From a virus (Duplodnaviria; Heunggongvirae; Uroviricota; Caudoviricetes), in IMG/VR virus record IMGVR_UViG_2695420763_000013: 34,806 nucleotides of DNA, one strand, 5' to 3'. The position numbers and the translations under genes are program-made. Numbering within the stretch: the stretch's first letter is position 1; each line of letters starts with the position of its first letter. Positions 1 to 34,806 of this stretch are shown one piece after another. The notes below the pieces were generated by a model. The model searched no databases. It had not been told where the DNA came from and saw only the letters and a list, made by a program, of their open reading frames with translations.

Positions 1-1362
1 ATGTTTAAACCGGAACTCCTTTCCCCGGCGGGAACGCTGAAAAATATGCGTTACGCTTTCGCTTATGGCGCAGATGCTGTTTATGCGGGCCAGCCGCGTT
101 ATTCCCTGCGTGTGCGCAACAACGAATTCAACCACGAAAATCTTCAGCTCGGCATCAATGAAGCCCACGCGCTGGGGAAAAAGTTTTATGTCGTGGTCAA
201 CATTGCACCGCACAACGCCAAGCTGAAAACCTTTATCCGTGACCTGAAACCGGTGGTGGAAATGGGGCCGGATGCGCTGATTATGTCCGATCCAGGGCTG
301 ATTATGCTGGTGCGTGAGCACTTCCCTGAAATGCCGATCCACCTTTCGGTGCAGGCTAACGCCGTGAACTGGGCGACGGTGAAATTCTGGCAGCAAATGG
401 GCCTGACCCGCGTGATCCTCTCTCGCGAGCTGTCGCTGGAAGAGATTGAAGAGATCCGCAATCAGGTGCCGGATATGGAGATCGAGATCTTCGTTCACGG
501 CGCGCTGTGCATGGCCTACTCCGGTCGCTGCCTGCTCTCTGGCTATATCAACAAGCGCGACCCGAACCAGGGCACCTGCACCAACGCCTGCCGCTGGGAG
601 TACAACGTCCAGGAAGGGAAAGAAGATGATGTTGGCAACATCGTACACAAGTACGAGCCGATTCCGGTGCAAAATGTTGAGCCGACGCTGGGTATCGGCG
701 CACCAACCGACAAAGTGTTTATGATCGAAGAGGCCCAGCGTCCGGGCGAGTATATGACCGCGTTTGAAGATGAGCACGGCACTTACATCATGAACTCGAA
801 AGATCTGCGCGCCATCGCCCATGTAGAACGCCTGACCAAAATGGGCGTGCATTCGCTGAAAATCGAAGGTCGTACCAAATCTTTCTACTATTGTGCACGC
901 ACCGCACAGGTTTACCGCAAAGCTATCGATGACGCCGCTGCGGGAAAACCGTTCGATACCAGCCTGCTGGAAACTCTGGAAGGTCTGGCGCATCGTGGCT
1001 ATACCGAAGGTTTCCTGCGTCGTCATACTCACGACGATTATCAGAACTACGAATACGGTTATTCAGTTTCTGACCGCCAGCAGTTTGTTGGTGAGTTTAC
1101 CGGTGAGCGCAAGGGGGACCTCGCGGCGGTAGCGGTGAAAAATAAATTCTCCGTTGGCGACAGCCTTGAGCTGATGACGCCGCAAGGCAACATTAATTTT
1201 ACCCTTGAGCACATGGAAAACGCCAAAGGCGAAGCTATGCCGATAGCACCAGGCGATGGTTATACTGTGTGGCTCCCGGTCCCGCAGGATCTTGAGCTCA
1301 ATTACGCGCTGCTGATGCGTAATTTCTCCGGGGAAACCACGCGTAATCCCCACGGTAAGTGA
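1..1362 (+). CDS. yegQ: Peptidase U32-family protein YegQ (TrhP)
   Basis: 453-aa ORF with the U32 signature E-x-F-x-x-G-A-L-C-x-x-Y-S-G-x-C (EIFVHGALCMAYSGRCLLS); lies immediately upstream of cyaR as in E. coli. Name from memory. Confidence 0.85.
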   Translation: MFKPELLSPAGTLKNMRYAFAYGADAVYAGQPRYSLRVRNNEFNHENLQLGINEAHALGKKFYVVVNIAPHNAKLKTFIRDLKPVVEMGPDALIMSDPGLIMLVREHFPEMPIHLSVQANAVNWATVKFWQQMGLTRVILSRELSLEEIEEIRNQVPDMEIEIFVHGALCMAYSGRCLLSGYINKRDPNQGTCTNACRWEYNVQEGKEDDVGNIVHKYEPIPVQNVEPTLGIGAPTDKVFMIEEAQRPGEYMTAFEDEHGTYIMNSKDLRAIAHVERLTKMGVHSLKIEGRTKSFYYCARTAQVYRKAIDDAAAGKPFDTSLLETLEGLAHRGYTEGFLRRHTHDDYQNYEYGYSVSDRQQFVGEFTGERKGDLAAVAVKNKFSVGDSLELMTPQGNINFTLEHMENAKGEAMPIAPGDGYTVWLPVPQDLELNYALLMRNFSGETTRNPHGK

Positions 1363-1446
1363 TTAATTTCGATTATTTTTCCCGGATGGAAAATTCTTAG
1401 AAACCGATCACATACAGCTGCATTTATTAAGGTTATCATCCGTTTC

Positions 1447-1533
1447 GCTGAAAAACATAACCCATAAAATGCTAGCTGTACCAGGAACCACCTCCTTAGC
1501 CTGTGTAATCTCCCTTACACGGGCTAATTTTTT
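1447..1533 (+). ncRNA. cyaR: CyaR (RyeE) Hfq-dependent small RNA
   Basis: About 87 nt beginning GCTGAAAAACATAACCC, with the CCACCTCCTTA motif and a 3' hairpin plus T-run (CCCTTACACGGGCTAATTTTTT). Matches my memory of E. coli CyaR. A TATCAT -10-like hexamer lies at 1434..1439. The 3' end coincides with attL. Confidence 0.7.
1507..1533. other. attL: Prophage attL core (P2 att 27-mer, 26/27 identical to attR copy)
   Basis: AATCTCCCTTACACGGGCTAATTTTTT. The reverse complement matches the remembered P2 attP core AAAAAATAAGCCCGTGTAAGGGAGATT except one position. A second copy lies at 34304..34330. Confidence 0.7.
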
Positions 1534-1597
1534 ACGCGTAATACAATGAAATAAAAGGATTTATTTCTGGTCACGTCCACACATTGACCACATCGAC

Positions 1598-1624
1598 AAA
1601 AAAGCCCCTCGACTGAGGGGCTTT
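1598..1624 (-). terminator. Rho-independent terminator downstream of ogr
   Basis: GC-rich hairpin GCCCCTC-GACT-GAGGGGC flanked by an A-run on the plus strand, giving a T-run after the stem on the minus strand, about 10 nt past the ogr stop. Confidence 0.6.
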
Positions 1625-1634
1625 CCATTTGTAA

Positions 1635-1853
1635 TTACATCCACATAATTTGCTGCCCTGACGGCAACGGGTGCGGTCTTACGGCGTGGACTTCTCCCGG
1701 CTTCACGATGTATCTCTGTACCGACTCATAGGTGATGAACGTGGCGCTGCAATTCACGTTCTGGCACTGGTGATAACGCTCTTTTGTCGTGTCAGTGATA
1801 TAGCGACTTGTACGCGCATGTGCGGCATGCTGGCATAAAGGACAATGAAACAT
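1635..1853 (-). CDS. ogr: Late-gene transcriptional activator Ogr (zinc finger)
   Basis: 72-aa product from the internal ATG at 1851..1853 (MFHCPLCQHAAHARTSRY...CQNVNCSATF), with CxxC...CxxC zinc-binding pairs. Same length as P2 Ogr. The 100-aa ORF-track version is an upstream extension. Confidence 0.9.
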   Translation of the reverse strand: MFHCPLCQHAAHARTSRYITDTTKERYHQCQNVNCSATFITYESVQRYIVKPGEVHAVRPHPLPSGQQIMWM

Positions 1854-8295: not shown

Positions 8296-8889
8296 CTATT
8301 TGTCCCGGTTGGCTAAGGGATGACACAATTTATTCTTTGTCGCTGATGAGGGAAATTTTTTATAGAGCGTGGACAGGCCAATATCAAAAATCAGCGCCAC
8401 ACGTTGACGAGATTCCCCCGCAGCCAGCAACCGTCCGACCTGCTCCCACTCACTCGCGGTGAGTTTCGGACGTCTGCCACCAATACGACCTTTGGCTCTG
8501 GCCGCTTCCAGTCCGGCGCGTGTCCGCTCGACAATGAGTTCTCGTTCCATTTCAGCCAGGGCACCCATCACATGGAAGAAAAAACGCCCCATCGGCGTGC
8601 TGGTATCAATAGCATCCGTCAGGCTGCGAAAATTAATGCCGCGTTCGCGCAGTTCCTCGACCAGAATGACCAGATGCCGCATACTACGCCCCAGCCTGTC
8701 CAGCTTCCAGACAACCAGAGTGTCACCTTCCGATAATGTTCTGAGCAGTTTTTTCAGCCCCGGTCGGTCGGACTTCGTGCCGCTGATTTTATCCTCAAAA
8801 ATCAGCTCACATCCTGCGCACTCCAGCGCGTTACGCTGCAATTCCGTATTCTGGTCATTTGTTGATACGCGGACATAGCCAATAAGCAT
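8296..8889 (-). CDS. Serine recombinase, DNA invertase (Hin/Gin/Pin/Cin family)
   Basis: N-terminus MLIGYVRVSTNDQ carries the catalytic serine motif; resolvase-type catalytic domain and a C-terminal helix-turn-helix (LSTLYKKF); adjacent to the tail-fibre crossover sites. Confidence 0.9.
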   Translation of the reverse strand: MLIGYVRVSTNDQNTELQRNALECAGCELIFEDKISGTKSDRPGLKKLLRTLSEGDTLVVWKLDRLGRSMRHLVILVEELRERGINFRSLTDAIDTSTPMGRFFFHVMGALAEMERELIVERTRAGLEAARAKGRIGGRRPKLTASEWEQVGRLLAAGESRQRVALIFDIGLSTLYKKFPSSATKNKLCHPLANRDK

Positions 8890-8956
8890 GATGGATCCCC
8901 TGAATAAAAACCGGGGATGATGCCAGTTAGCCGTAATCTCTGCATTTTCTTAAACG

Positions 8957-8971
8957 TTGGTTTGGGAGAAG
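8957..8971 (+). other. Putative invertase crossover-site core, copy 1 (TTGGTTTGGGAGAAG)
   Basis: Identical 15-mer at 10579..10593 (same orientation) and 12416..12430 (inverted); in each copy it encodes G-L-G-E at the junction between constant and variable tail-fibre parts. Confidence 0.55.
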
Positions 8972-9318
8972 CGGCGAAAAGGGATGTGGGTACAGGAGAA
9001 AATCAGATACCGGATATGTCAGCCTGGAAAAGAAATCCGAGTTCTAATCGCTGGAGAAAATTGCCTGATGGAACCATCATTCAAATGGGAATATCAGCAT
9101 CAGGGCCATTAGGCTCACCTGTAAATATCACCCTGCCGATATCTTTCAGCAATACCAATTATTGTGTTGTTGCATCGTACGATAATGCACGGTCAGGTGT
9201 GTCAACAATGGTTAGTTTTGCAGCATTACCTGTTTCACCATCGCAATTTTCCCTGATGTCATCTGTGACTGAGCAAGGAATAAATCCTTTTGCTTACTGG
9301 ATTGCTTTTGGAGATTGA
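8959..9318 (+). CDS. Promoterless tail-fibre C-terminal cassette (exact copy of the H C-terminus)
   Basis: Translation from the crossover core (GLGEAAKRDVGTGENQ...AFGD) is identical to the last ~120 aa of H (12069..12430, minus strand). The upstream part of the ORF-track ORF 8917..9318 is out-of-cassette read-through. Confidence 0.5.
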   Translation, partial: GLGEAAKRDVGTGENQIPDMSAWKRNPSSNRWRKLPDGTIIQMGISASGPLGSPVNITLPISFSNTNYCVVASYDNARSGVSTMVSFAALPVSPSQFSLMSSVTEQGINPFAYWIAFGD

Positions 9319-9321
9319 TAA

Positions 9322-9741
9322 ATGGACAGATACTTCTATTCACAAAAAGAAAATGGTTTTTTTACCGATTTAAATAAAGCACCTTCAGATGCTGTTGAGA
9401 TAACCACGGATGAATGGCTATCACTACTGGATGGTCAGGATAATGGCATGAAAATAGTCAGCAATCAGGAGGGATATCCGGTTTTGACAGAGCAACCACC
9501 TTTATCAAAAGAAAACCTTATTGCATTGGTAGAGTTGAAAAAAGGAAAACTTATTAATGAAGCCAACGAGCACATGAACAGCAGGCAATGGCCTGGTAAA
9601 GCGGCTATTGGTCGTCTGAAAGGTGAGGAACTGGCGCAATATAATTTGTGGCTGGATTATCTGGACGCACTGGAGCTGGTCGATACTTCCAGTGCGCCAG
9701 ATATTGAATGGCCTACGCCTCCGGCAGTTCAGGCCAGATGA
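9322..9741 (+). CDS. Tail fibre assembly chaperone (Tfa family), copy of 11646..12065
   Basis: 139 aa with a Tfa-type C-terminus (WLDYLDALELVDTSSAPDIEWPTPP); identical to the chaperone immediately downstream of H. Confidence 0.7.
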   Translation: MDRYFYSQKENGFFTDLNKAPSDAVEITTDEWLSLLDGQDNGMKIVSNQEGYPVLTEQPPLSKENLIALVELKKGKLINEANEHMNSRQWPGKAAIGRLKGEELAQYNLWLDYLDALELVDTSSAPDIEWPTPPAVQAR

Positions 9742-10315
9742 TATCCGGCGCGGTGCTGGTATCTGTTACCGTCACCGCGTCAATGTAATCCAGCACGGCG
9801 TTAAGTCGGGTTGTTTCTGCCTGCGTCAACTTCCGTCCGGCCTGCAATTTCAGTTGAATCAGACTAATGGAAGCCATTGCAGTATCAATCAGTGACTGAC
9901 GTTGTGCTTCTGCCGCGTCTACTGCGGCGCTATGCTGTGCCTCGGTATCCGTCACCCATTTCTCACCATCCCATTTATCGTATGGCGTTAACGGGGCGAT
10001 AGTGGTTGTATTATCAGGGTAATCACCCGGAACTGTGATTTCTTTTGATTCTCCTGTTTCGGTGCTAAAGACGATTTCACCGCGATGGTCTGGCACATAT
10101 TCCCATGAGTTAAAATCTGCAGATCGGCAGATTGCATAACCAGCTTTGTATGCGCCTGGGGCATCTAAACAGGAATATGCCGGAATGCCGACACCAATAG
10201 CAAGATATTCAGTTGAAGCTGAAATATATTCCCGACTCATGACATCAAAGTTATAAACAGTAATTTCTCCTGCCATAGTGGCAATTAATTCACTGTTTAA
10301 TTCTGCGTTATTCAT
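9713..10315 (-). CDS. Tail fibre assembly chaperone (Tfa family), copy of 11072..11674
   Basis: 200 aa with a Tfa-type C-terminus (LDYIDAVTVTDTSTAPDIIWPELP); identical to the plus-strand copy. Confidence 0.7.
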   Translation of the reverse strand: MNNAELNSELIATMAGEITVYNFDVMSREYISASTEYLAIGVGIPAYSCLDAPGAYKAGYAICRSADFNSWEYVPDHRGEIVFSTETGESKEITVPGDYPDNTTTIAPLTPYDKWDGEKWVTDTEAQHSAAVDAAEAQRQSLIDTAMASISLIQLKLQAGRKLTQAETTRLNAVLDYIDAVTVTDTSTAPDIIWPELPEA

Positions 10316-10576
10316 TATGCAGCCCTCACAATATAGTTAAAAGCGACATTTCGTGGGCGTGTTTCATTCGCACCAGCAGGTTTAGTCGTTGCCGCAACAA
10401 CACCACCCTCTGTAATAGCCGGGTTGGGAATTGGGTAATTATCGAAGTCAATGGCCGGAGACAGGGGCGTGATTTGTTTTAAAATCGTGGTGCCTGTAAA
10501 ACTTTCCAGAGTCTGGTCGTTAGTTCGTGAAGTCCAGATTCCCCAATAGTGGTTATGACTGACAATCGCACCGTCC
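10315..10576 (-). pseudogene. Truncated copy of tail-fibre cassette B C-terminus (lacks N-terminal part and crossover site)
   Basis: Exact reverse complement of 10811..11072; the repeat identity ends at 10576, so this copy has no in-frame crossover core or start. Confidence 0.5.
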
Positions 10577-10578
10577 TA

Positions 10579-10593: not shown

Positions 10594-11072
10594 GCTCTGC
10601 ATTACCTGTTGGTGTCCCTGTTCCGTGGCCTTCAGCCACTCCGCCGACAGGCTGGATGAAATGCAACGGTGCGGCTTTTTCTGCTGAAGAATACCCGGAA
10701 CTGGCAAAGGCTTACCCGACAAATAAATTGCCTGATTTACGCGGTGAGTTTATTCGTGGCTGGGATGACGGACGTGGAGTGGATAACGGAAGGGGATTAT
10801 TAACGCTTCAGGACGGTGCGATTGTCAGTCATAACCACTATTGGGGAATCTGGACTTCACGAACTAACGACCAGACTCTGGAAAGTTTTACAGGCACCAC
10901 GATTTTAAAACAAATCACGCCCCTGTCTCCGGCCATTGACTTCGATAATTACCCAATTCCCAACCCGGCTATTACAGAGGGTGGTGTTGTTGCGGCAACG
11001 ACTAAACCTGCTGGTGCGAATGAAACACGCCCACGAAATGTCGCTTTTAACTATATTGTGAGGGCTGCATAA
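10581..11072 (+). CDS. Alternative tail-fibre C-terminal cassette B (receptor-binding tip), promoterless in this orientation
   Basis: Begins in frame inside the crossover core (GLGEGSALPVGVPVPWP...). The pattern GW-KCNGA, LPDLRGEFIRGWDDGRG and C-terminal RP-NVAFNYI is typical of Mu S/P1 S-type variable tail-fibre tips. The ORF-track start at 10584 is a TTG. Confidence 0.6.
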   Translation, partial: GLGEGSALPVGVPVPWPSATPPTGWMKCNGAAFSAEEYPELAKAYPTNKLPDLRGEFIRGWDDGRGVDNGRGLLTLQDGAIVSHNHYWGIWTSRTNDQTLESFTGTTILKQITPLSPAIDFDNYPIPNPAITEGGVVAATTKPAGANETRPRNVAFNYIVRAA

Positions 11073-11674
11073 TGAATAACGCAGAATTAAACAGTGAATT
11101 AATTGCCACTATGGCAGGAGAAATTACTGTTTATAACTTTGATGTCATGAGTCGGGAATATATTTCAGCTTCAACTGAATATCTTGCTATTGGTGTCGGC
11201 ATTCCGGCATATTCCTGTTTAGATGCCCCAGGCGCATACAAAGCTGGTTATGCAATCTGCCGATCTGCAGATTTTAACTCATGGGAATATGTGCCAGACC
11301 ATCGCGGTGAAATCGTCTTTAGCACCGAAACAGGAGAATCAAAAGAAATCACAGTTCCGGGTGATTACCCTGATAATACAACCACTATCGCCCCGTTAAC
11401 GCCATACGATAAATGGGATGGTGAGAAATGGGTGACGGATACCGAGGCACAGCATAGCGCCGCAGTAGACGCGGCAGAAGCACAACGTCAGTCACTGATT
11501 GATACTGCAATGGCTTCCATTAGTCTGATTCAACTGAAATTGCAGGCCGGACGGAAGTTGACGCAGGCAGAAACAACCCGACTTAACGCCGTGCTGGATT
11601 ACATTGACGCGGTGACGGTAACAGATACCAGCACCGCGCCGGATATCATCTGGCCTGAACTGCCGGAGGCGTAG
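11072..11674 (+). CDS. Tail fibre assembly chaperone for cassette B (Tfa family)
   Basis: 200 aa; ATG overlaps the cassette B stop; Tfa-type C-terminus. Confidence 0.75.
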   Translation: MNNAELNSELIATMAGEITVYNFDVMSREYISASTEYLAIGVGIPAYSCLDAPGAYKAGYAICRSADFNSWEYVPDHRGEIVFSTETGESKEITVPGDYPDNTTTIAPLTPYDKWDGEKWVTDTEAQHSAAVDAAEAQRQSLIDTAMASISLIQLKLQAGRKLTQAETTRLNAVLDYIDAVTVTDTSTAPDIIWPELPEA

Positions 11675-12065
11675 GCCATTCAATATCTGGCGCACTGGAA
11701 GTATCGACCAGCTCCAGTGCGTCCAGATAATCCAGCCACAAATTATATTGCGCCAGTTCCTCACCTTTCAGACGACCAATAGCCGCTTTACCAGGCCATT
11801 GCCTGCTGTTCATGTGCTCGTTGGCTTCATTAATAAGTTTTCCTTTTTTCAACTCTACCAATGCAATAAGGTTTTCTTTTGATAAAGGTGGTTGCTCTGT
11901 CAAAACCGGATATCCCTCCTGATTGCTGACTATTTTCATGCCATTATCCTGACCATCCAGTAGTGATAGCCATTCATCCGTGGTTATCTCAACAGCATCT
12001 GAAGGTGCTTTATTTAAATCGGTAAAAAAACCATTTTCTTTTTGTGAATAGAAGTATCTGTCCAT
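11646..12065 (-). CDS. Tail fibre assembly chaperone for the current H variant (P2 G-like)
   Basis: 139 aa directly downstream of H on the same strand; Tfa-type C-terminus. Confidence 0.75.
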   Translation of the reverse strand: MDRYFYSQKENGFFTDLNKAPSDAVEITTDEWLSLLDGQDNGMKIVSNQEGYPVLTEQPPLSKENLIALVELKKGKLINEANEHMNSRQWPGKAAIGRLKGEELAQYNLWLDYLDALELVDTSSAPDIEWPTPPAVQAR

Positions 12066-12068
12066 TTA

Positions 12069-13256
12069 TCAATCTCCAAAAGCAATCCAGTAAGCAAAAG
12101 GATTTATTCCTTGCTCAGTCACAGATGACATCAGGGAAAATTGCGATGGTGAAACAGGTAATGCTGCAAAACTAACCATTGTTGACACACCTGACCGTGC
12201 ATTATCGTACGATGCAACAACACAATAATTGGTATTGCTGAAAGATATCGGCAGGGTGATATTTACAGGTGAGCCTAATGGCCCTGATGCTGATATTCCC
12301 ATTTGAATGATGGTTCCATCAGGCAATTTTCTCCAGCGATTAGAACTCGGATTTCTTTTCCAGGCTGACATATCCGGTATCTGATTTTCTCCTGTACCCA
12401 CATCCCTTTTCGCCGCTTCTCCCAAACCAAGGTATGCGAGAAGACCAGCTACATCCTTTCCACTCAAATGAGTCAGCGTCTCATCCAGTGGCTGCTTACC
12501 TGACAGCGCATTGTTAATGGTGGCGCTGAATTTCGGGTCATTGTTAATGGCTGCGGCAATTTCTTTCAGTGTGTCCAGCGTGGCTGGCGCGCCGTTAATC
12601 AGAGCGGTAATAGCAGCCTGTACAAACGCAGTGGTCGCAATCCGCGTGGTGTTATTTCCTGCATCAGGCGTCGGCGCTTTTGGTTCTCCGGTAAATGTCG
12701 GATTATGTTTCTGTGCATACTGGGTATGAGGATCCTGTGCGGCAATGTGGTTTCTCATCTGGTCATCCACATACAGCCTTAATTCCAGGACTTCATCATC
12801 CACGTATTTACGGGTCGCCAGTACCACCGACGGGTCGATTTTCAGCGTGATGGCTTCGGTATTCGTGACAACCAGAATCATGCGGATAGTCTGGGTACGA
12901 CCACTGCCTTCCTGTAACTGCGGTTTGTACGTTTCCGGGCAGTTCGCCACCGCAATGAGTACGCCTTCATCATCATAAAGCCCAATCTCACGGATCCAGA
13001 ATCCGCCCTCGTTCTCAGGGATGATTTGCTCCGCAATAATCTGGCTCTGGTTATTCGGGTCAACACTCAGAAGATTCAGCGGCGCGATGCGTTTCTGGTT
13101 AATAAGTTTTGTCTGTGCCGGGTCTGGTGTCGGCAAGACACCATTTGCATCACCAACGGCCATTTGCGTCAGATTCAGCTTACTGCCGAGCATCGTCGCG
13201 TTAGCCAGCCGTGCCGCGCCCTGATTAGTCAGAATGGCGTAGTATTTCACTGTCAT
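12069..13256 (-). CDS. H: Tail fibre protein H (constant N-terminal part fused to variable cassette A)
   Basis: 395 aa. The N-terminus resembles P2 gpH (MAVGD...GGFW.RE.GLYDD.G.LIAVAN....YKP...EGSGR). The C-terminal ~120 aa begins at the inverted crossover core 12416..12430. Confidence 0.85.
   Translation of the reverse strand: MTVKYYAILTNQGAARLANATMLGSKLNLTQMAVGDANGVLPTPDPAQTKLINQKRIAPLNLLSVDPNNQSQIIAEQIIPENEGGFWIREIGLYDDEGVLIAVANCPETYKPQLQEGSGRTQTIRMILVVTNTEAITLKIDPSVVLATRKYVDDEVLELRLYVDDQMRNHIAAQDPHTQYAQKHNPTFTGEPKAPTPDAGNNTTRIATTAFVQAAITALINGAPATLDTLKEIAAAINNDPKFSATINNALSGKQPLDETLTHLSGKDVAGLLAYLGLGEAAKRDVGTGENQIPDMSAWKRNPSSNRWRKLPDGTIIQMGISASGPLGSPVNITLPISFSNTNYCVVASYDNARSGVSTMVSFAALPVSPSQFSLMSSVTEQGINPFAYWIAFGD
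12416..12430 (-). other. Putative invertase crossover-site core, copy 3 (inverted, inside H)
   Basis: Reverse complement of TTGGTTTGGGAGAAG; encodes G-L-G-E in H. Confidence 0.55.
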
Positions 13257-23962: not shown

Positions 23963-24996
23963 TGAGCAAGAAAAAAGGGAAAACACCGCAACCTGCGGCA
24001 AAAAAAATGACCGCCAGCGCCCCGAAAATGGAGGCATTCACCTTTGGTGAGCCGGTGCCGGTACTCGACCGCCGTGACATTCTGGATTACGTCGAATGCA
24101 TCAGTAACGGCAGATGGTATGAGCCACCAATCAGCTTTACCGGTCTGGCAAAAAGCCTGCGTGCTGCCGTGCATCACAGCTCACCGATTTACGTCAAACG
24201 CAATATTCTGGCCTCGACATTTATCCCGCACCCGTGGCTTTCCCAGCAGGATTTCAGCCGCTTTGTGCTGGATTTTCTGGTGTTCGGTAATGCGTTTCTG
24301 GAAAAGCGATACAGCACCACCGGTAAGGTCATCAGACTGGAAACCTCACCGGCAAAATATACCCGCCGTGGTGTGGCAGAGGATGTTTACTGGTGGGTGC
24401 CGTCCTTCAACGAGCCGACACCTTTCACGCCCGGCTCCGTGTTTCACCTGCTGGAGCCGGATATTAATCAGGAGCTGTACGGCCTGCCGGAATATCTCAG
24501 CGCCCTTAACTCTGCCTGGCTGAATGAGTCGGCCACGTTGTTCCGCCGCAAGTATTACGAAAACGGCGCACATGCCGGATACATCATGTACGTCACTGAT
24601 GCCGTGCAGGATCGCAACGATATCGAAATGCTCCGCGAAAACATGGTGAAGTCGAAAGGCCGCAACAACTTTAAAAATCTGTTTCTCTATGCCCCACAGG
24701 GGAAAGCCGACGGCATTAAAATTATCCCGCTCAGTGAAGTCGCAACGAAGGACGATTTTTTTAATATCAAAAAAGCCAGCGCCGCTGACCTGCTGGACGC
24801 GCACCGCATCCCCTTTCAGTTGATGGGAGGCAAGCCGGAGAACGTCGGGTCGCTGGGCGATATTGAGAAAGTGGCAAAGGTCTTTGTCCGCAATGAGCTT
24901 ATCCCGTTACAGGACAGGATTCGGGAAATAAACGGCTGGCTCGGTCAGGAGGTCATCCGCTTTAAAAACTACTCACTGGACACTGACAACGGCTGA
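23962..24996 (+). CDS. Q: Portal protein Q
   Basis: 344 aa, the P2 gpQ length; start overlaps the P stop. Confidence 0.9.
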   Translation: MSKKKGKTPQPAAKKMTASAPKMEAFTFGEPVPVLDRRDILDYVECISNGRWYEPPISFTGLAKSLRAAVHHSSPIYVKRNILASTFIPHPWLSQQDFSRFVLDFLVFGNAFLEKRYSTTGKVIRLETSPAKYTRRGVAEDVYWWVPSFNEPTPFTPGSVFHLLEPDINQELYGLPEYLSALNSAWLNESATLFRRKYYENGAHAGYIMYVTDAVQDRNDIEMLRENMVKSKGRNNFKNLFLYAPQGKADGIKIIPLSEVATKDDFFNIKKASAADLLDAHRIPFQLMGGKPENVGSLGDIEKVAKVFVRNELIPLQDRIREINGWLGQEVIRFKNYSLDTDNG

Positions 24997-25340: not shown

Positions 25341-27173
25341 TTAACAACGTAATTCTGTACAATTAGCCCATTCTTCAGAAAAAACAGCATCTGAAGATTT
25401 TGGCCCTGGCCTTGCTTGATTAATTGAAATTCTTACAGGCAAATTAAATGCAGAACCAAATGCAACAGCATCACCTCTTGGTAAACCTGATATTTGTTTT
25501 AAGATTTGTTCATTACCGCTTTCCATTGCATATCTGAGAGCCTGTAAATCTCTTTCATTAGTCAAACGTAACGAAAACCAGTTTGAACACATTGCCAAAA
25601 CAGTAGGAGAAAGCTCTGAGGGTCGCTGAGTACTGACAATTAAAGAGCATTTGAATTTCCTACCTTCTTTAGCAAGTCGTTCATATGCTTTAATCTGTGA
25701 GTCAATTTCAGCATAAGGGTCACGCAGGTAATGATGCGCTTCTTCCAACAAAAGTACCGTAGGATACGAACGTTCCTGCCCACGTCTAAATAGTATCTCA
25801 GCAAACATCTCCAACAATGCACTAAGTAACATTGGAGCATGATCTTGTGCCAAATTTTTCATATTAACTATATGAACATTCCAATCATTTTCTTGTCCTT
25901 TTTCCTTACCAAAGAAGTAATCAACTTCATCACTCATAGCTTTATCCCAATGCGTTCCACCATCTGCTAGCTCACCCCCTCCATTTAAATTAACAATAGA
26001 TTTAAATCTTATATCCTCTGCAAGTTGTTGTATGATTTTTACCAATGGCAACACGTTACTAAAACCAAACGCGTCACGTTTACTTCCATTAGAACGGTCA
26101 GCAGCTACACATCCAAATTCAGCAACCAAAGTCGCTAAACTTTTAAACGGTGGCCATACATTCGTTCTTTTAAGACGTCTACGCCTTAATAAATCCAACC
26201 ACTCAGCCAATTTACTTTGATTTGTGTCACGACAATCATCATACAAAAGAAAAGTTTCACCATCATCTTTTTCCAAGTAAATATTACGGCTTTTAAAATG
26301 AGTCCGATTAATTGCACTTAATGCATTTCTTAATGCGGGCAATTGTGTTTTATCACTTGGTCTTAATAATTTAATTAACCCAGCAAAACCTAATGCCTGA
26401 TATGGTATCTTTTTATAACAATAATACTCTTCACTATATAGCTCACCCTTTTGCTGCTTTTTTTCCAAACTATCAACATTTGGGGATTCCCCTAGAATAG
26501 TGTGCTTTACATTTGGAATACCTGTAAAAGCTTGCGCGTATTCACCATTTATGTCAAAAATAACTATTCTTGAGTTAGGGTATTTTTCAGAAACCTTCCT
26601 CGTTAACAAAGCATTGAAATTTGATTTACCATATCCTGTACTACCAAGAACGGCTAAGTGTCGCGACAATAATTTATCAACACTTGCAAATATCTTAACG
26701 GTTTTAGTTCGAGAATCCACACCTAATTCAACCGCTTTTGGGAGTTCTTCTTTATCAATACTATAAATGATGTTCAAAAAATCTGAAGTCAAAGGAACAG
26801 CAGAAGAACCCAATGCAGGTAAGCGCCAATCTTCTGATATAAAAACATAACCATTTAACTCCCTTTTCACAAAGCCAATTGCATAGGCGATAATTTGTCT
26901 TAGAGGTATATCAGCTAAATCAGATGTGCCTACATTTGCCTTATGCGCTTTATCCGCTTCAACAAATGCCATATCTGTCACTCTTGCGACAACTAATATA
27001 TTACCTGCATCGAACCCAATAAGATCTCCTGGTTGCGTTACTGAGCTCACCCCCTTTCTATGCGATGCTAATCTGCCTTGCAACCCCTCATGCAGGTTTA
27101 TCCTAATTCTTTCCCCTTCTAATCCTACAACGTATCCAATAGCCGAGATTTCAGTAAGTTTAAAAAGGGACAT
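25341..27173 (-). CDS. HerA-like ATPase/helicase (defence cargo, gene 2 of 2)
   Basis: 610-aa product from the ATG at 27171..27173, preceded by AAAGGAG 6 nt upstream. Walker A GSTGYGKS (about residue 183), Walker B-like VLLLEEAHHY, and an IVSTQRPSEL motif typical of HerA/FtsK-type ATPases. AT-rich. The ORF-track start at 27224 is a TTG. Confidence 0.85.
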   Translation of the reverse strand: MSLFKLTEISAIGYVVGLEGERIRINLHEGLQGRLASHRKGVSSVTQPGDLIGFDAGNILVVARVTDMAFVEADKAHKANVGTSDLADIPLRQIIAYAIGFVKRELNGYVFISEDWRLPALGSSAVPLTSDFLNIIYSIDKEELPKAVELGVDSRTKTVKIFASVDKLLSRHLAVLGSTGYGKSNFNALLTRKVSEKYPNSRIVIFDINGEYAQAFTGIPNVKHTILGESPNVDSLEKKQQKGELYSEEYYCYKKIPYQALGFAGLIKLLRPSDKTQLPALRNALSAINRTHFKSRNIYLEKDDGETFLLYDDCRDTNQSKLAEWLDLLRRRRLKRTNVWPPFKSLATLVAEFGCVAADRSNGSKRDAFGFSNVLPLVKIIQQLAEDIRFKSIVNLNGGGELADGGTHWDKAMSDEVDYFFGKEKGQENDWNVHIVNMKNLAQDHAPMLLSALLEMFAEILFRRGQERSYPTVLLLEEAHHYLRDPYAEIDSQIKAYERLAKEGRKFKCSLIVSTQRPSELSPTVLAMCSNWFSLRLTNERDLQALRYAMESGNEQILKQISGLPRGDAVAFGSAFNLPVRISINQARPGPKSSDAVFSEEWANCTELRC

Positions 27174-28413
27174 TACCTTCTCCTTTAGAAAGATTAGCAA
27201 TTGCTTCAACCAACTCATCAACAATATTATCTCGTGGAAAGAGCACAGGGTATGGTAGATGTTCTACGAAACTATTAAAATATGCCTTGCTTCCTCCCCC
27301 AACTACAGTTACTTGATTGAAAGCCATATTTTTTAAAGTAACAATAGCTTTCTCAGCTTCCGAACCGCCACCCTTACTTACTTTGGTAATTGCTTCTTTC
27401 AATTCAGGATAATATATAACAACATGGAAAGATGGATTCAGTAACGCGCCTAATATTATTCTATTTATATGATAATCACCGAAACCAAACCCATTTATGA
27501 ACAACGCTGTTTGAGGTTTCGAAATAAACTCCCCAAAACGTCTAAACATCTCTCCATAAACGAAGCCGATTGTATGGCTATATTTATTCGCCCCTGGATA
27601 AATCAAATGTTGACCGCGATAAAAGTCATCTTTATTGATTATGTCATTAATATATTCATCATATGCTTGAGATGCACTAACTTCGTTAACAGTCAAGCTA
27701 TCATTTTGATACCACGTAAGTGAGCCATGTAATTTATAGAGATACGCATGATAATGTCCGAATCTTGCTTCGCCCTTCGCATTTACATTTCTGAAAGCCA
27801 AATCAAAATTCTGGGGATAAAACTGCCGTGTATGTAGCCCAGAAAAACCATTAAACAACTGTATTCCTAAATCTTCTGCAGCCCACTCTAAGGCCAAATC
27901 ATAATTTGTTGTAAAAATTGCCGGAGCCGACTGACCGGGCTGTCTATTTGAAATTAATTTTGAAATTAACTCTTTGTGATATTTAAACGCATCTTTTTTA
28001 CCCTGATTTTTCTCTCTAAACTGTTCTCCTGTTAATAATGCAGCCTTCGTAACCTCTTTATATAATGAACTTAATATCTTCCTGAATTCCTCCTCTTCAT
28101 CTTCACATCGTCTAGTTTTAGCTACAGAAAGAAATTTAGTTGCTTCATCTATCAAAAGTTCAACATTGACCAAATTGTTATCAGAATCAATTTGCGAAAC
28201 CAGAAGATATTTATCAATAAGTGCTCCCAAAAGCTCAGGGTAGTTTTGCTTAAACGATTTCCATACATCTTTCATCGTTTTCCCACCACAACCGACAGAA
28301 GCACCAGCACCTAACAGAACGCCAACATTATCTAATTGACACAAGGAATAAACGTGAGAACGAAAATCATCCTCATTTAACTTGTTACCACCTTGATAAA
28401 TCGACATAAACAT
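27160..28413 (-). CDS. SIR2-like (sirtuin-fold) NAD-binding protein (defence cargo, gene 1 of 2)
   Basis: 417 aa. Glycine-rich GAGAS(V)GCGG near the N-terminus, TTNYD motif (Asn about 170) and KLHGS motif (His about 229), as in prokaryotic defence SIR2 domains. A second ATG at 28405..28407 has better SD spacing, so the true start may be 2 codons in. Confidence 0.85.
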   Translation of the reverse strand: MFMSIYQGGNKLNEDDFRSHVYSLCQLDNVGVLLGAGASVGCGGKTMKDVWKSFKQNYPELLGALIDKYLLVSQIDSDNNLVNVELLIDEATKFLSVAKTRRCEDEEEEFRKILSSLYKEVTKAALLTGEQFREKNQGKKDAFKYHKELISKLISNRQPGQSAPAIFTTNYDLALEWAAEDLGIQLFNGFSGLHTRQFYPQNFDLAFRNVNAKGEARFGHYHAYLYKLHGSLTWYQNDSLTVNEVSASQAYDEYINDIINKDDFYRGQHLIYPGANKYSHTIGFVYGEMFRRFGEFISKPQTALFINGFGFGDYHINRIILGALLNPSFHVVIYYPELKEAITKVSKGGGSEAEKAIVTLKNMAFNQVTVVGGGSKAYFNSFVEHLPYPVLFPRDNIVDELVEAIANLSKGEGNVPF

Positions 28414-32234: not shown

Positions 32235-32419
32235 ACCCTCCGGCTTTTCAGAAAGGTCAGAGCCTTTTTTAACGGACTCTGTTTTTTGGTGCGGATAATG
32301 ATTCCCTTACGCCCCTTACCGTGGGTGATGGTGAAGTCAATCGCCCTGGGGCTTTCGTTACGCAGTAACTGAGCAATACAACGAGGCTCATTCATACGGT
32401 TCTCCTTAACGTGGTTCAC
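32225..32419 (-). CDS. Small early protein (P2 orf78 position)
   Basis: 64-aa ORF, possibly starting at the internal Met MNEPRCIAQ; overlaps the cox stop. Confidence 0.4.
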   Translation of the reverse strand: MNHVKENRMNEPRCIAQLLRNESPRAIDFTITHGKGRKGIIIRTKKQSPLKKALTFLKSRRVWK

Positions 32420-32681
32420 CGAGACCTAACCACATCAACCAGCCGTCACGAATCTCTTTAGGGCGGCTTTCATAAGCCAGTTTTAGTCCGTTATTCCATG
32501 CCGGAAGGTATACCCAATATTCACCTGCACGACCTGAAGCTGATTGTGGATCGGTCATATCAATTACAGGCAGCTTTCCTTTATCGATCATCCGACGAAC
32601 CGCTCCTGTCGATTTTCCTATTAGTTTTGCGAACTCCTGATAAGGAATCGCATCAGTCATGAGTGTTACTTGCTTGCTCAT
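32406..32681 (-). CDS. cox: Cox (excisionase and regulator of the lysis-lysogeny switch)
   Basis: 91 aa (MSKQVTLMTDAIPYQEFAKLIGKSTGAVRRMIDKGKLPVID...), the P2 Cox length; divergent from C. Confidence 0.85.
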   Translation of the reverse strand: MSKQVTLMTDAIPYQEFAKLIGKSTGAVRRMIDKGKLPVIDMTDPQSASGRAGEYWVYLPAWNNGLKLAYESRPKEIRDGWLMWLGLGEPR

Positions 32682-32795: not shown

Positions 32796-33095
32796 ATGTC
32801 AAACACGATAAGCGAGAAGATAGTCTTAATGCGAAAATCAGAGTATTTGAGCAGACAACAACTTGCTGATTTAACAGGGGTTCCGTATGGCACGCTGAGT
32901 TACTATGAAAGTGGTCGTTCAACACCTCCAACAGATGTCATGATGAACATCCTGCAGACCCCACAATTCACCAAATACACTTTATGGTTCATGACCAATC
33001 AGATCGCTCCTGAGTCCGGGCAAATTGCGCCCGCTCTCGCACACTTTGGGCAAAACGAAACAACGTCGCCCCACTCCGGTCAAAAGACTGGTTAA
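32796..33095 (+). CDS. C: Immunity repressor C
   Basis: 99 aa, the P2 C length; HTH-like segment LSRQQLADLTGVPYGTLSYYESG. Confidence 0.85.
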   Translation: MSNTISEKIVLMRKSEYLSRQQLADLTGVPYGTLSYYESGRSTPPTDVMMNILQTPQFTKYTLWFMTNQIAPESGQIAPALAHFGQNETTSPHSGQKTG

Positions 33096-33210: not shown

Positions 33211-34224
33211 ATGGCAATCAAAAAACTCGATGATGGTCGATATGAAGTGGACATCCGCCCTACTGGACGTAATGGAAAACGCATCCGTAGGAAGTTTGAT
33301 AAGAAAAGCGAAGCTGTCGCTTTCGAGAAATACACGTTGTACAACCACCACAATAAAGAATGGCTATCAAAACCAACAGACAAGCGACGTCTGTCGGAGC
33401 TGACACAGATCTGGTGGGATTTAAAGGGTAAACACGAAGAGCATGGGAAATCTAATCTTGGGAAAATTGAAATCTTCACAAAAATAACGAATGACCCATG
33501 CGCATTTCAAATTACGAAATCGCTTATCAGCCAGTACTGCGCCACCCGAAGAAGTCAGGGTATTAAACCTTCGAGTATCAATCGTGATTTAACATGTATT
33601 AGCGGCATGTTTACAGCCCTGATTGAAGCGGAGTTATTCTTTGGTGAGCACCCTATCAGAGGGACAAAAAGGCTTAAGGAGGAAAAACCAGACACAGGCT
33701 ATCTCACGCAGGAAGAAATTGCCTTACTGCTTGCTGCTCTTGACGGCGACAACAAAAAGATTGCGATTCTTTGCCTGAGTACTGGAGCACGTTGGGGAGA
33801 AGCAGCTCGTTTGAAAGCAGAAAATATCATCCATAACCGCGTCACGTTTGTTAAAACGAAAACAAACAAACCACGCACCGTCCCGATCTCAGAGGCTGTT
33901 GCCAAAATGATCGCGGATAACAAACGAGGTTTTTTATTCCCTGATGCTGATTACCCTCGCTTCAGACGAACAATGAAAGCAATAAAACCGGATTTGCCAA
34001 TGGGGCAAGCTACACATGCACTAAGGCACAGCTTTGCCACTCATTTCATGATTAATGGAGGAAGTATTATCACGCTACAACGGATACTAGGTCACACGCG
34101 GATTGAGCAAACTATGGTTTACGCTCATTTTGCGCCAGAGTACCTTCAGGACGCCATTTCTCTTAATCCGCTAAGAGGTGGTACTGAGGTCGAGAGTGTC
34201 CACACAGTGTCCACAGTAGAGTAA
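33211..34224 (+). CDS. int: Tyrosine integrase
   Basis: 337 aa, the P2 Int length; catalytic-domain motifs (TGARWGE, HALRHSFATH, LGHT-IEQTMVYAH with the terminal Tyr); directly precedes attR. Confidence 0.9.
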   Translation: MAIKKLDDGRYEVDIRPTGRNGKRIRRKFDKKSEAVAFEKYTLYNHHNKEWLSKPTDKRRLSELTQIWWDLKGKHEEHGKSNLGKIEIFTKITNDPCAFQITKSLISQYCATRRSQGIKPSSINRDLTCISGMFTALIEAELFFGEHPIRGTKRLKEEKPDTGYLTQEEIALLLAALDGDNKKIAILCLSTGARWGEAARLKAENIIHNRVTFVKTKTNKPRTVPISEAVAKMIADNKRGFLFPDADYPRFRRTMKAIKPDLPMGQATHALRHSFATHFMINGGSIITLQRILGHTRIEQTMVYAHFAPEYLQDAISLNPLRGGTEVESVHTVSTVE

Positions 34225-34303
34225 CGTTTAAGGGCTTTCAGTGGTAATTTATGCCGCTCAAACCCGCATTGTACCGTTGAAAGCCCCTACTGGTGACACC
34301 CTA

Positions 34304-34330
34304 AATCTCCCTTACACGGGCTTATTTTTT
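34304..34330. other. attR: Prophage attR core (exact P2 att 27-mer)
   Basis: AATCTCCCTTACACGGGCTTATTTTTT, the reverse complement of the remembered P2 attP core; 80 bp downstream of the int stop. Confidence 0.75.
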
Positions 34331-34488
34331 ATGCATAAGCCCTATCCCTGGTCACCGTCTTCCATTGACCACATCGATAGAATCTCCCTTCATAGCACGA
34401 TGCCTTTCACGTAACGGCATCGTGCTCGCACAGGTTCCGGCTACGCACAGCCAGAACGCGCATATTTGACGCTTACCAAAAAATATTC

Positions 34489-34806
34489 TCACTCTCCACA
34501 TTTGAATGTCAGACGAGCGACGCCATGTAATCCTGCACCTTCTGTCTTCAGGTCAACTATCTGCATTTTTTTGCCCTGAGTAACACAGAAATGGGCTGCA
34601 TCATTTTTTACTATATTTTCTGCACCAGATATTCTACCCCTGGCTAAAGAAGCTTCGGCTTCGGTGTAGTATTGGTTATCGAGTTTACGCTGAATATTAC
34701 TTTTATATGCAAGACCAAATTTACCGATACTTGTCTCATCATTATGCACAGCACAACCAGACATAATAAAAATACTAATTAATGATATAGCAGCTATCTT
34801 TTTCAT
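34489..34806 (-). CDS. yegR: Small lipoprotein YegR
   Basis: 105 aa with signal peptide and lipobox (MKKIAAISLISIFIMSGC); host flank beyond attR. Name from remembered E. coli synteny. The start codon is the last triplet of the window. Confidence 0.6.
   Translation of the reverse strand: MKKIAAISLISIFIMSGCAVHNDETSIGKFGLAYKSNIQRKLDNQYYTEAEASLARGRISGAENIVKNDAAHFCVTQGKKMQIVDLKTEGAGLHGVARLTFKCGE

Follow-up and report, generated by a model that had tools for sequence, protein, structure and literature searches.

Why should the likeness between the two ends of a P2-like prophage run past the crossover core, with host DNA beside yegR resembling an arm of the phage? The question is raised by a window of 34,806 nucleotides (the whole stretch of DNA that was analysed, IMG/VR record IMGVR_UViG_2695420763_000013), which holds, in this order, yegQ/trhP, a P2-like prophage with ogr and D at its left end, and yegR. 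By P2 convention the name attR (P-O-B') goes to the junction beside ogr, on the left of the window, and attL to the one beside int; left and right are used here as they lie in the window. The answer proposed is that the attachment site of P2 in E. coli is very probably itself one junction of an ancient, gutted P2-like prophage, and that the block of host sequence beside the core is the fossil P arm of that element. The features on which the argument draws are collected in Table 1.

Table 1. Features of the window that bear on the attachment site. L001 denotes the stretch of P2 record AF063097 used for comparison; window positions equal L001 + 906 on the left side and L001 + 33703 on the right side.
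Feature	Position	Strand	Basis
yegQ/trhP, host gene upstream of the attachment site	1-1362	+	ORF; trhP/yegQ annotation in E. coli records
cyaR (ryeE) sRNA gene; its intrinsic terminator contains the att core	1445-1533	+	Rfam RF00112
Left 27-nt P2 att core (AATCTCCCTTACACGGGCTAATTTTTT)	1507-1533	.	Same as attP misc_feature of AF063097
IHF-binding spacer of the phage arm (predicted)	1532-1565	.	By position: AF063097 protein_bind IHF 24324-24357 = L001 626-659
Int P-arm binding site, phage copy	1567-1596	.	AF063097 protein_bind 'Int, P arm' and repeat scan
Rho-independent terminator of ogr and the F operon	1598-1624	-	AF063097 regulatory feature, L001 695-718; hairpin GCCCCTC/GAGGGGC
ogr, late-gene activator, first prophage gene on the left	1635-1853	-	P2 CDS by position; tblastn, translation
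cox	32406-32681		Prophage right end
Repressor gene	32796-33095		Prophage right end
int, P2-type tyrosine integrase, toward the right junction	33211-34224	+	ORF; P2 int CDS end equivalent; 'site-specific integrase' in E. coli genomes
Int P'-arm binding site within the 3' end of int	34190-34216	.	AF063097 'Int, P' arm' = L001 487-513
Cox-binding region of attP (predicted)	34214-34287	.	By position: AF063097 protein_bind Cox = L001 511-584
Right 27-nt att core, same as P2 attP core	34304-34330	.	Direct comparison
Host flank between core and arm relic	34331-34347	.	ATGCATAA matches phage ACGCGTAA at 6/8
Probable fossil P-arm site, host copy	34348-34377	.	Alignment, shuffles, repeat scan; also in empty sites
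Partial extra core copy AATCTCCCTT (AATCCTCCTT in some strains)	34381-34390	.	Second-best core match in the core-to-yegS segment
11-bp hairpin (AGCACGATGCC ... GGCATCGTGCT) downstream of yegR	34394-34426	.	Fold z = -3.5; no T-run
yegR, small lipoprotein-like orphan gene in the relic segment	34489-34806	-	ORF; yegR annotation

Two observations on the body of the prophage stand apart from this question. The tail-fibre region holds a perfect (100%) inverted repeat of 1633 nt (8945-10577 and 10810-12442) with arms 232 nt apart, and a serine invertase gene (Pfam Resolvase plus HTH_7; 8296-8889, minus strand) adjoins it. An invertible fibre segment would normally have short inverted repeats and two alternative ends that differ; identical arms of 1.6 kb are odd, and gene conversion or an assembly artefact is possible. 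Elsewhere, on the minus strand at 25341-28413, lies a predicted anti-phage defence pair of SIR2 (417 aa) and HerA (627 aa), for which PADLOC returned matches to PDLC02186 (4e-190) and PDLC02185 (2e-277).

The left junction falls in a gene for a small RNA. A match to the CyaR/RyeE covariance model (RF00112) at 1445-1530 spans the full model (positions 1-85) at 97.6 bits against a gathering score of 47, and a terminator-like site has its stem at 1496-1527, with TTTTTT after it. The att core coincides with the 3' half of this terminator hairpin plus the T-run, so that a terminator for CyaR is restored at the left junction. That the 3' end of cyaR and the attachment site of P2 overlap has reportedly been remarked upon in the CyaR literature. 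The initial annotation of the window was silent on this identity, as it was on the identity of the arm block as an Int arm site.

Several variants of the core and terminator can be recorded here. Position 1526, in the left core copy, is A, as against T at 34323, in P2, in P22H1 and in the P2 remnant of E. coli K-12 (GGGCTAATTTTTT); the A also falls on, and changes, the base with which the U-tract region at the 3' end of CyaR begins, and the same A occurs natively in the cores of Leclercia and Pseudocitrobacter. If the A at 1526 is phage-derived, the strands were exchanged left of core position 20. In E. coli the CyaR terminator stem (1496-1527) has ACACGGG as its right half, a sequence of the P2 core type that Kluyvera shares, whereas Escherichia sp. 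E1V33 (L004 3797-3830) and most genera have ACGCAGG or ACGCGGG. The 3' end of E. coli CyaR may itself have come from the ancient phage. In one E. coli sequence (L095, NZ_LR536430.1; locus 160-1491, junction near 1500) an IS4-family transposase lies within the cyaR terminator and att core, an insertion that should disrupt CyaR termination and the P2 attachment site alike.

The resemblance that raised the question can be read directly from the window, where the 30-mers at 1567-1596 and 34348-34377 are identical at 24 of 30 positions without a gap, in the order of an exact CTGGTCAC, six mismatches and an exact 15-mer, CATTGACCACATCGA. A repeat search pairs 1562-1610 with 34343-34391 (family D2) and pairs the cores, with their first neighbours, as 1507-1541 and 34304-34338 (family D10; 32/35 identical), and the offsets of the two pairs differ by 16 nt because the phage carries 16 more bases between core and block. 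When gaps are allowed, the alignment from core start to block end has 63 identities over 74 host bases. Set against each other, the 113 nt that follow the left core and the 158 nt that follow the right core gave a best ungapped score of 21 and a longest exact word of 15, values reached in none of 5000 dinucleotide-preserving shuffles (maxima 15 and 14, respectively). A chance likeness in AT-rich intergenic DNA, in favour of which there is nothing but the shortness of the block, can therefore be dismissed with near certainty, the more so since phage and host agree in the orientation of the block and in the side of the core on which it lies; the similarity that the initial annotation had pointed out, just downstream of each copy of the core, is genuine.

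On the phage side, the block is, by the GenBank annotation of the identical P2 sequence, a P2-type Int arm site, which would be bound by the N-terminal domain of Int. The feature 'Int, P arm' of AF063097 (24293-24320; GGTCACGTCCACACATTGACCACATCGA) corresponds base for base to 1569-1596 of the window, and the block sits between the core and IHF site on one side and the ogr terminator on the other, matching the features of the P2 record position for position. Comparison with the P2 attP arms, proposed in the initial annotation as a check, thus gave the block a name. Int arm sites of the P2 type have the consensus tgTGGaCa (PMC3448106), and a repeat scan found that all four arm repeats of the prophage fit it. 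The two in the block (CGTCCACA at 1574-1581 and TGACCACA at 1585-1592, spaced 11 nt) each match the reverse-complement consensus at 7/8, and the P' arm has two TGTCCACA repeats (34197-34204 and 34208-34215), likewise 11 nt apart and oriented as those of the P arm. The distribution of the block is also that of a phage sequence: the P2-like Yersinia phage vB_YpM_46 carries it at 30/30 identity together with a different core and a different P' arm, and variants of it are present where P2-like elements occupy the cyaR core of Citrobacter- and Enterobacter-like genomes. The P-arm block belongs to the phage and not to the cyaR locus.

The host copy, to judge from its sequence, is probably a decayed P-arm site and not a working one. 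It differs from the P2 site in having a single repeat, the TGACCACA that is intact at 34366-34373, and in lying 16 nt nearer the core; at the position of the first repeat the scan found no window that matches the consensus at 5/8 or better, so that two repeats at the correct spacing are lacking. The spacer from core to arm measures 17 nt in the host as against 33 in the phage, and the 16-nt deletion removes most of the IHF spacer, leaving no AT-rich stretch of the kind that IHF binds. The post-core ATGCATAA is nearer to the ACGCGTAA type (the window, the K-12 remnant and P22H1) than to P2 proper, the left end of the relic prefers 'ACGCGTAA ... CATCGATA' types among the attP-type sequences compared, and a host 17-mer, CATTGACCACATCGATA, is identical to the arm of a C. 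youngae phage. Shortly beyond the block lies a partial extra copy of the core (P of a shared word of at least 10 = 0.003), which might tentatively be taken as the scar of a further occupation, and hence of more than one round.

The block adjoins the core even where no prophage is present. In strain A19 the empty site consists of the cyaR core followed by ATGCATAAGCCCTATCC and CTGGTCACCGTCTTCCATTGACCACATCGA..., and a 170-nt query spanning the empty junction was found in 4208 of 5426 complete E. coli genomes; the suggestion in the initial annotation that the host flank is a relic has therefore withstood inspection of the empty site. A sensitive blastn search of 50,697 phage records with 34331-34500 and with the whole E. 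coli-specific segment found the host-type variant in no phage, the only two records matched, Phage TP and vB_EcoM-720R8, both including host DNA. These two records (AY639599.1 and ON470606.1) contain the E. coli flank, with yegR and the fossil arm, and their ends are those of a prophage plus host DNA, not phage termini.

How the flank came to differ from that of other bacteria is seen when the region downstream of yegQ is compared among 80 Enterobacterales genomes, a sample with only one Escherichia other than E. coli (sp. E1V33), so that any timing rests on E1V33 plus more distant genera. A core (at least 22/27) lies about 146 nt past yegQ in 51 Enterobacteriaceae loci, and the stem of the CyaR terminator shows paired substitutions on both sides across genera; the sequence after the T-run differs among genera from the first base. 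In 31 loci, including that of E1V33, yegS follows about 75-145 nt past the core, and there is neither yegR nor any arm-like block. In E. coli the interval from core to yegS is about 893 nt, and the extra segment of about 0.8 kb, which contains yegR, is AT-rich (40% GC, as against 54% for yegQ and 50% for yegS). Only the last ~85 nt before yegS (cgactttcatcctgttctgac...) are shared with E1V33, and the insert therefore starts exactly at the crossover core of P2. E1V33 and 30 other loci thus represent precise empty sites of the kind expected for a prophage remnant, and among the compared loci the host block is restricted to E. coli.

The same comparison bears on whether the likeness is an extended functional att homology, in which the shared site would be some 90 nt long and the block would be kept for recombination or for restoring a host function, as in phages that integrate in tRNA genes. 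The likeness does run past the 27-nt core, first at 32/35 and then in the block, and the core does restore the end of a host gene, the CyaR terminator. However, CyaR stops at the T-run, and the 31 loci with the same core continue with unrelated sequence straight to yegS; in Citrobacter- and Enterobacter-like hosts the same core is occupied although the native flank has no block. The host copy, moreover, has lost one of its two repeats to the 16-nt deletion and six mismatches, and the P2 block is an arm-type protein-binding site that lies outside the crossover region. Extended homology, the first of the two readings offered in the initial annotation, is thus a most unlikely explanation, and the reading as a relic is preferred.

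If the segment is the remnant of a prophage, its other end should also be recognizable, and this end lies outside the window; its analysis drew on strain A19 (L002) together with 17 further sequences of E. coli. The left core of the segment is perfect (27/27), and the best forward core match in the 893-nt segment (L002 2304-2330) falls at the right boundary of the insert, at 18/27 (P = 0.016 segment-wide, 0.0015 locally). When the 31 P'-proximal nucleotides of the prophage are joined to its core (window 34273-34330), the match to L002 2275-2330 extends to 39 of 58 positions (67%) with two 1-nt gaps, a score that none of 20000 fixed-location shuffles reached, and no other place in the 893-nt segment matches as well. 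The right-hand relic was noticed on inspecting the boundary, and the segment-wide test, which is independent of that choice, gave a local score of 20 against a shuffle maximum of 18 (0/3000). The P'-proximal 31-mer by itself matches at 21/31 (P = 1e-4), and a MAFFT alignment places the degenerate right core in register with the real core of E1V33 and with the shared spacer to yegS. Local alignment of the wider int/P' region (230 nt) to the right boundary returned a 38-nt match alone (P = 0.036), which made the in-register comparison necessary, and in this wider search no likeness to P'-arm repeats or int was found further in from the right relic.

The segment thus has a direct repeat of the core at both ends and, inside each core and in the correct orientation, phage arm sequence. 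With core and P arm at one end and P'-proximal sequence and core at the other, it is therefore the skeleton of a P2-type prophage, and the second reading of the initial annotation, that the host flank by yegR is a relic of an earlier P2-like element, gains an Int P-arm site at one end and a P'-proximal and core relic at the other.

Similarity alone gives no direction, and aberrant excision is a known process; the P arm might then be host-derived, an ancestor of P2 having taken up the E. coli DNA to the right of the core. Such a transfer in reverse leaves the P'-proximal and core relic, at the other end of the segment with yegR, without explanation. It also sits badly with the 30/30 identity of the block in a Yersinia phage with a different core, with the match of the block repeats to the P' arm and to the family-wide consensus, and with a host copy that, of the two, is the degenerate one and occurs in E. 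coli alone. That the phage took its arm from the host is accordingly rated as highly improbable, and the decayed prophage is retained.

The age of the relic is a separate matter. P2-type int-side junctions precede the same flank in 817 genomes (15% of 5426), and in such lysogens the prophage has the P arm on one side and the host block on the other, as direct repeats. It could be supposed that P2 prophages repeatedly copy their arm into the adjacent flank by gene conversion, in which case the block would be young and recurrent. Yet all 18 E. coli sequences compared, from diverse lineages that include K-12, O157 and ST131, share the derived mismatches and the 16-nt deletion, and this shared derived state points to one old event. 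Variation among the 18 is minor (CTGGTCACC, CTGGTAACC or CTGATAACC at one place, AATCTCCCTT or AATCCTCCTT at another). A synthetic query in which phage arm and host flank were joined at the 15-mer, as would follow from loss of a prophage by recombination between the arms, found no single-piece chimera among the best matches, which were only two-piece sequences of the K-12 type. Recent gene conversion is therefore very unlikely, and an old relic remains the preferred account. One ST131 strain (4433; L096) has an AT-rich insertion of ~180 bp in the relic segment, between the hairpin and the yegR stop, and a G-to-A change in its core (TTACACAGGC).

The sole gene of the segment, the rest of which lies past the end of the window, is yegR; recognizable phage genes were looked for in the segment and none was found, a point against the relic. 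With tblastn, no homologue of YegR was found in the 50,697 phage records other than in Phage TP and vB_EcoM-720R8, where the host flank is included. Members of the YegR family (PF27694) occur almost only in E. coli and Shigella, and a Pfam scan of the YegR of the window gave no match; the 'homologues' of 78-88% identity found at the yegR locus itself are from assemblies in which genes are fragmented, and were uninformative. YegR-family genes (PF27694; 47-81% identical) were seen at unrelated loci in other bacteria (L084-L090, L099), one of them in an IS-flanked island of Enterobacter sp. BIDMC 29 and others paired with a conserved neighbour of 108-110 aa, and the gene looks mobile. A link to P2 by way of YegR homologues was dropped, the distant members being at unrelated loci, and on the same ground yegR could have arrived independently.

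The position of yegR is nevertheless one that phage cargo can take. In the P2-like prophage of C. youngae at cyaR a cargo gene lies between the P arm and ogr; a layout with cargo next to the P arm is therefore already known, and the place of yegR is equivalent. The gene may be cargo of the ancient element or have arrived within it. In P2-like elements and relics of other genera, cargo genes beside the P arm at cyaR were seen in L017 (4139-4744), L040 (4198-5350 and 5723-6328) and L050 (4775-5380), with products that include a T5orf172-domain protein (C. youngae prophage) and a WapI-like immunity protein (L040). On the minus strand at 34394-34480 there are two strong hairpins downstream of yegR (fold z = -3.5) without a U-tract; a role as terminators was rejected, as the T-run is absent and no terminator-like site was called.

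The E. coli segment is probably one of several decayed occupations of this site. In the case of K-12, the ogrK/D' remnant lies at the same site, and its deletion extends into the core copy on the right, next to the same fossil flank. Where cyaR and yegS are separated by an insert, a second core-like copy 105-110 nt before yegS is found in several loci, L034 (23/27), L040 (19/27), L023 (18/27), and L037 and L050 (16/27 each), comparable with the second copy of E. coli, 114 nt before the yegS start. Two of these loci, the Enterobacter-like L040 and L050, have good P arms, matching at 22/30 and 25/30 and preceded by AT-rich spacers of the phage type, and a second core-like copy 105-106 nt before yegS; ogr and D are absent from both, and a few small cargo genes are all that is present. 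A 201-aa membrane protein is common to these two relics. A further locus, L041, has an arm-like block (21/30) in an insert of ~200 bp. The repeated occupation of the site that the initial annotation had supposed is thus borne out by the K-12 remnant, by the live P2-like prophages of the 817 genomes and by the relics in other genera.

Some of these elements were known before. The Int P-arm site of P2 attP was reportedly defined by Yu and Haggard-Ljungquist in 1993, and the cryptic P2 remnant of E. coli K-12 (ogrK and a truncated D gene, yegZ) is said to have been described by Barreiro and Haggard-Ljungquist in 1992. The K-12 remnant is likewise a decayed P2-like prophage at the cyaR core, with one junction intact and an internal deletion into the other core. 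It is, however, young and strain-specific, and retains ogr and part of D, whereas the present relic is older, occurs in every E. coli sequence that was compared, has no recognizable phage gene and underlies the K-12 remnant.

Temperate phages and islands integrate in the 3' ends of tRNA, tmRNA and sRNA genes and supply a replacement 3' end. The P2 core likewise rebuilds a 3' end, that of the CyaR terminator, at a site used across genera; the target differs in being the terminator of an Hfq-dependent sRNA and not a tRNA, and the duplication is only 27 nt. A similar mixture of likeness and difference is seen with lambda: by the P2 annotation and PMC3448106, the lambda attP (P1, P2, P'1-3) and its attL and attR intasomes would follow the same heterobivalent logic, although the consensus, number and arrangement of the repeats are unlike those of P2.

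Thus the P2 arm sites, the K-12 remnant and integration at the 3' ends of RNA genes are already established. A full-text literature search for cyaR with P2 or attachment site, within a reach that did not extend to the primary P2 att papers, returned nothing relevant. What appears to be additional is that the empty E. coli site is the junction of an older, species-wide relic of P2 type, that this relic has an identifiable far end beyond yegR, and that similar relics lie at cyaR in other genera.

The phage block has been identified, the host block stands in empty sites and only in E. coli, and both relic ends are seen; from this a history can be proposed, in which a single ancient integration followed by internal deletion would have made the skeleton. 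A P2-like element would have established itself as a prophage in an ancestor of E. coli, at the 3' end of cyaR. Internal deletions, such as K-12 shows under way, would then have removed nearly all of the element, and drift would have followed. The skeleton of ~0.8 kb, now carried by every E. coli, would consist, in order, of the cyaR core, the decayed P arm, perhaps a partial core, the hairpin, yegR, AT-rich DNA, the right relic, the ancestral spacer and yegS, the right relic being a decayed P'-proximal sequence plus a decayed core. The left core would have been kept because it terminates CyaR, and this intact core would serve as attB for present-day P2-like phages. With the left core of the skeleton used as attB, a new prophage would therefore be bordered by its own P arm and, past the far junction, by the fossil arm. 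The int-side junction of the window resembles P'-core-half-P.

Whether the fossil arm still acts in recombination can be considered from what is known of the integrases. Heterobivalent tyrosine integrases bridge arm and core across a bend made by IHF (PMC3448106). In the P arm of P2, two repeats one helical turn apart would be bound by the N-terminal domain of Int, with IHF bending the spacer. The host copy has one repeat and no IHF spacer, and assembly of an intasome on it is therefore unlikely; the fossil would no longer support assembly of Int and IHF. The alternative is that the fossil is active, in that the repeat 36 nt from the core could recruit Int and favour the site or could alter the excision intasome, with yegR as selected phage cargo and the 3' half of the CyaR terminator derived from phage. 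This is regarded as unlikely, and the reading of the block as an inert fossil of an ancient P arm is preferred.

If the E. coli site is indeed such a junction, the attB of P2 in this species would not be a naive bacterial sequence, and the relic would explain the origin of the neighbourhood of the orphan gene yegR. Since older scars can produce similarity beyond the core, the calling of prophage boundaries needs care, as an attachment site deduced from repeats in the flanks may be made too long. For studies of P2 recombination, 'attB' substrates cloned from E. coli would carry an arm-type half-site that needs control. More generally, the 3' end of cyaR would represent a long-lived integration hotspot and prophage graveyard across the Enterobacteriaceae.
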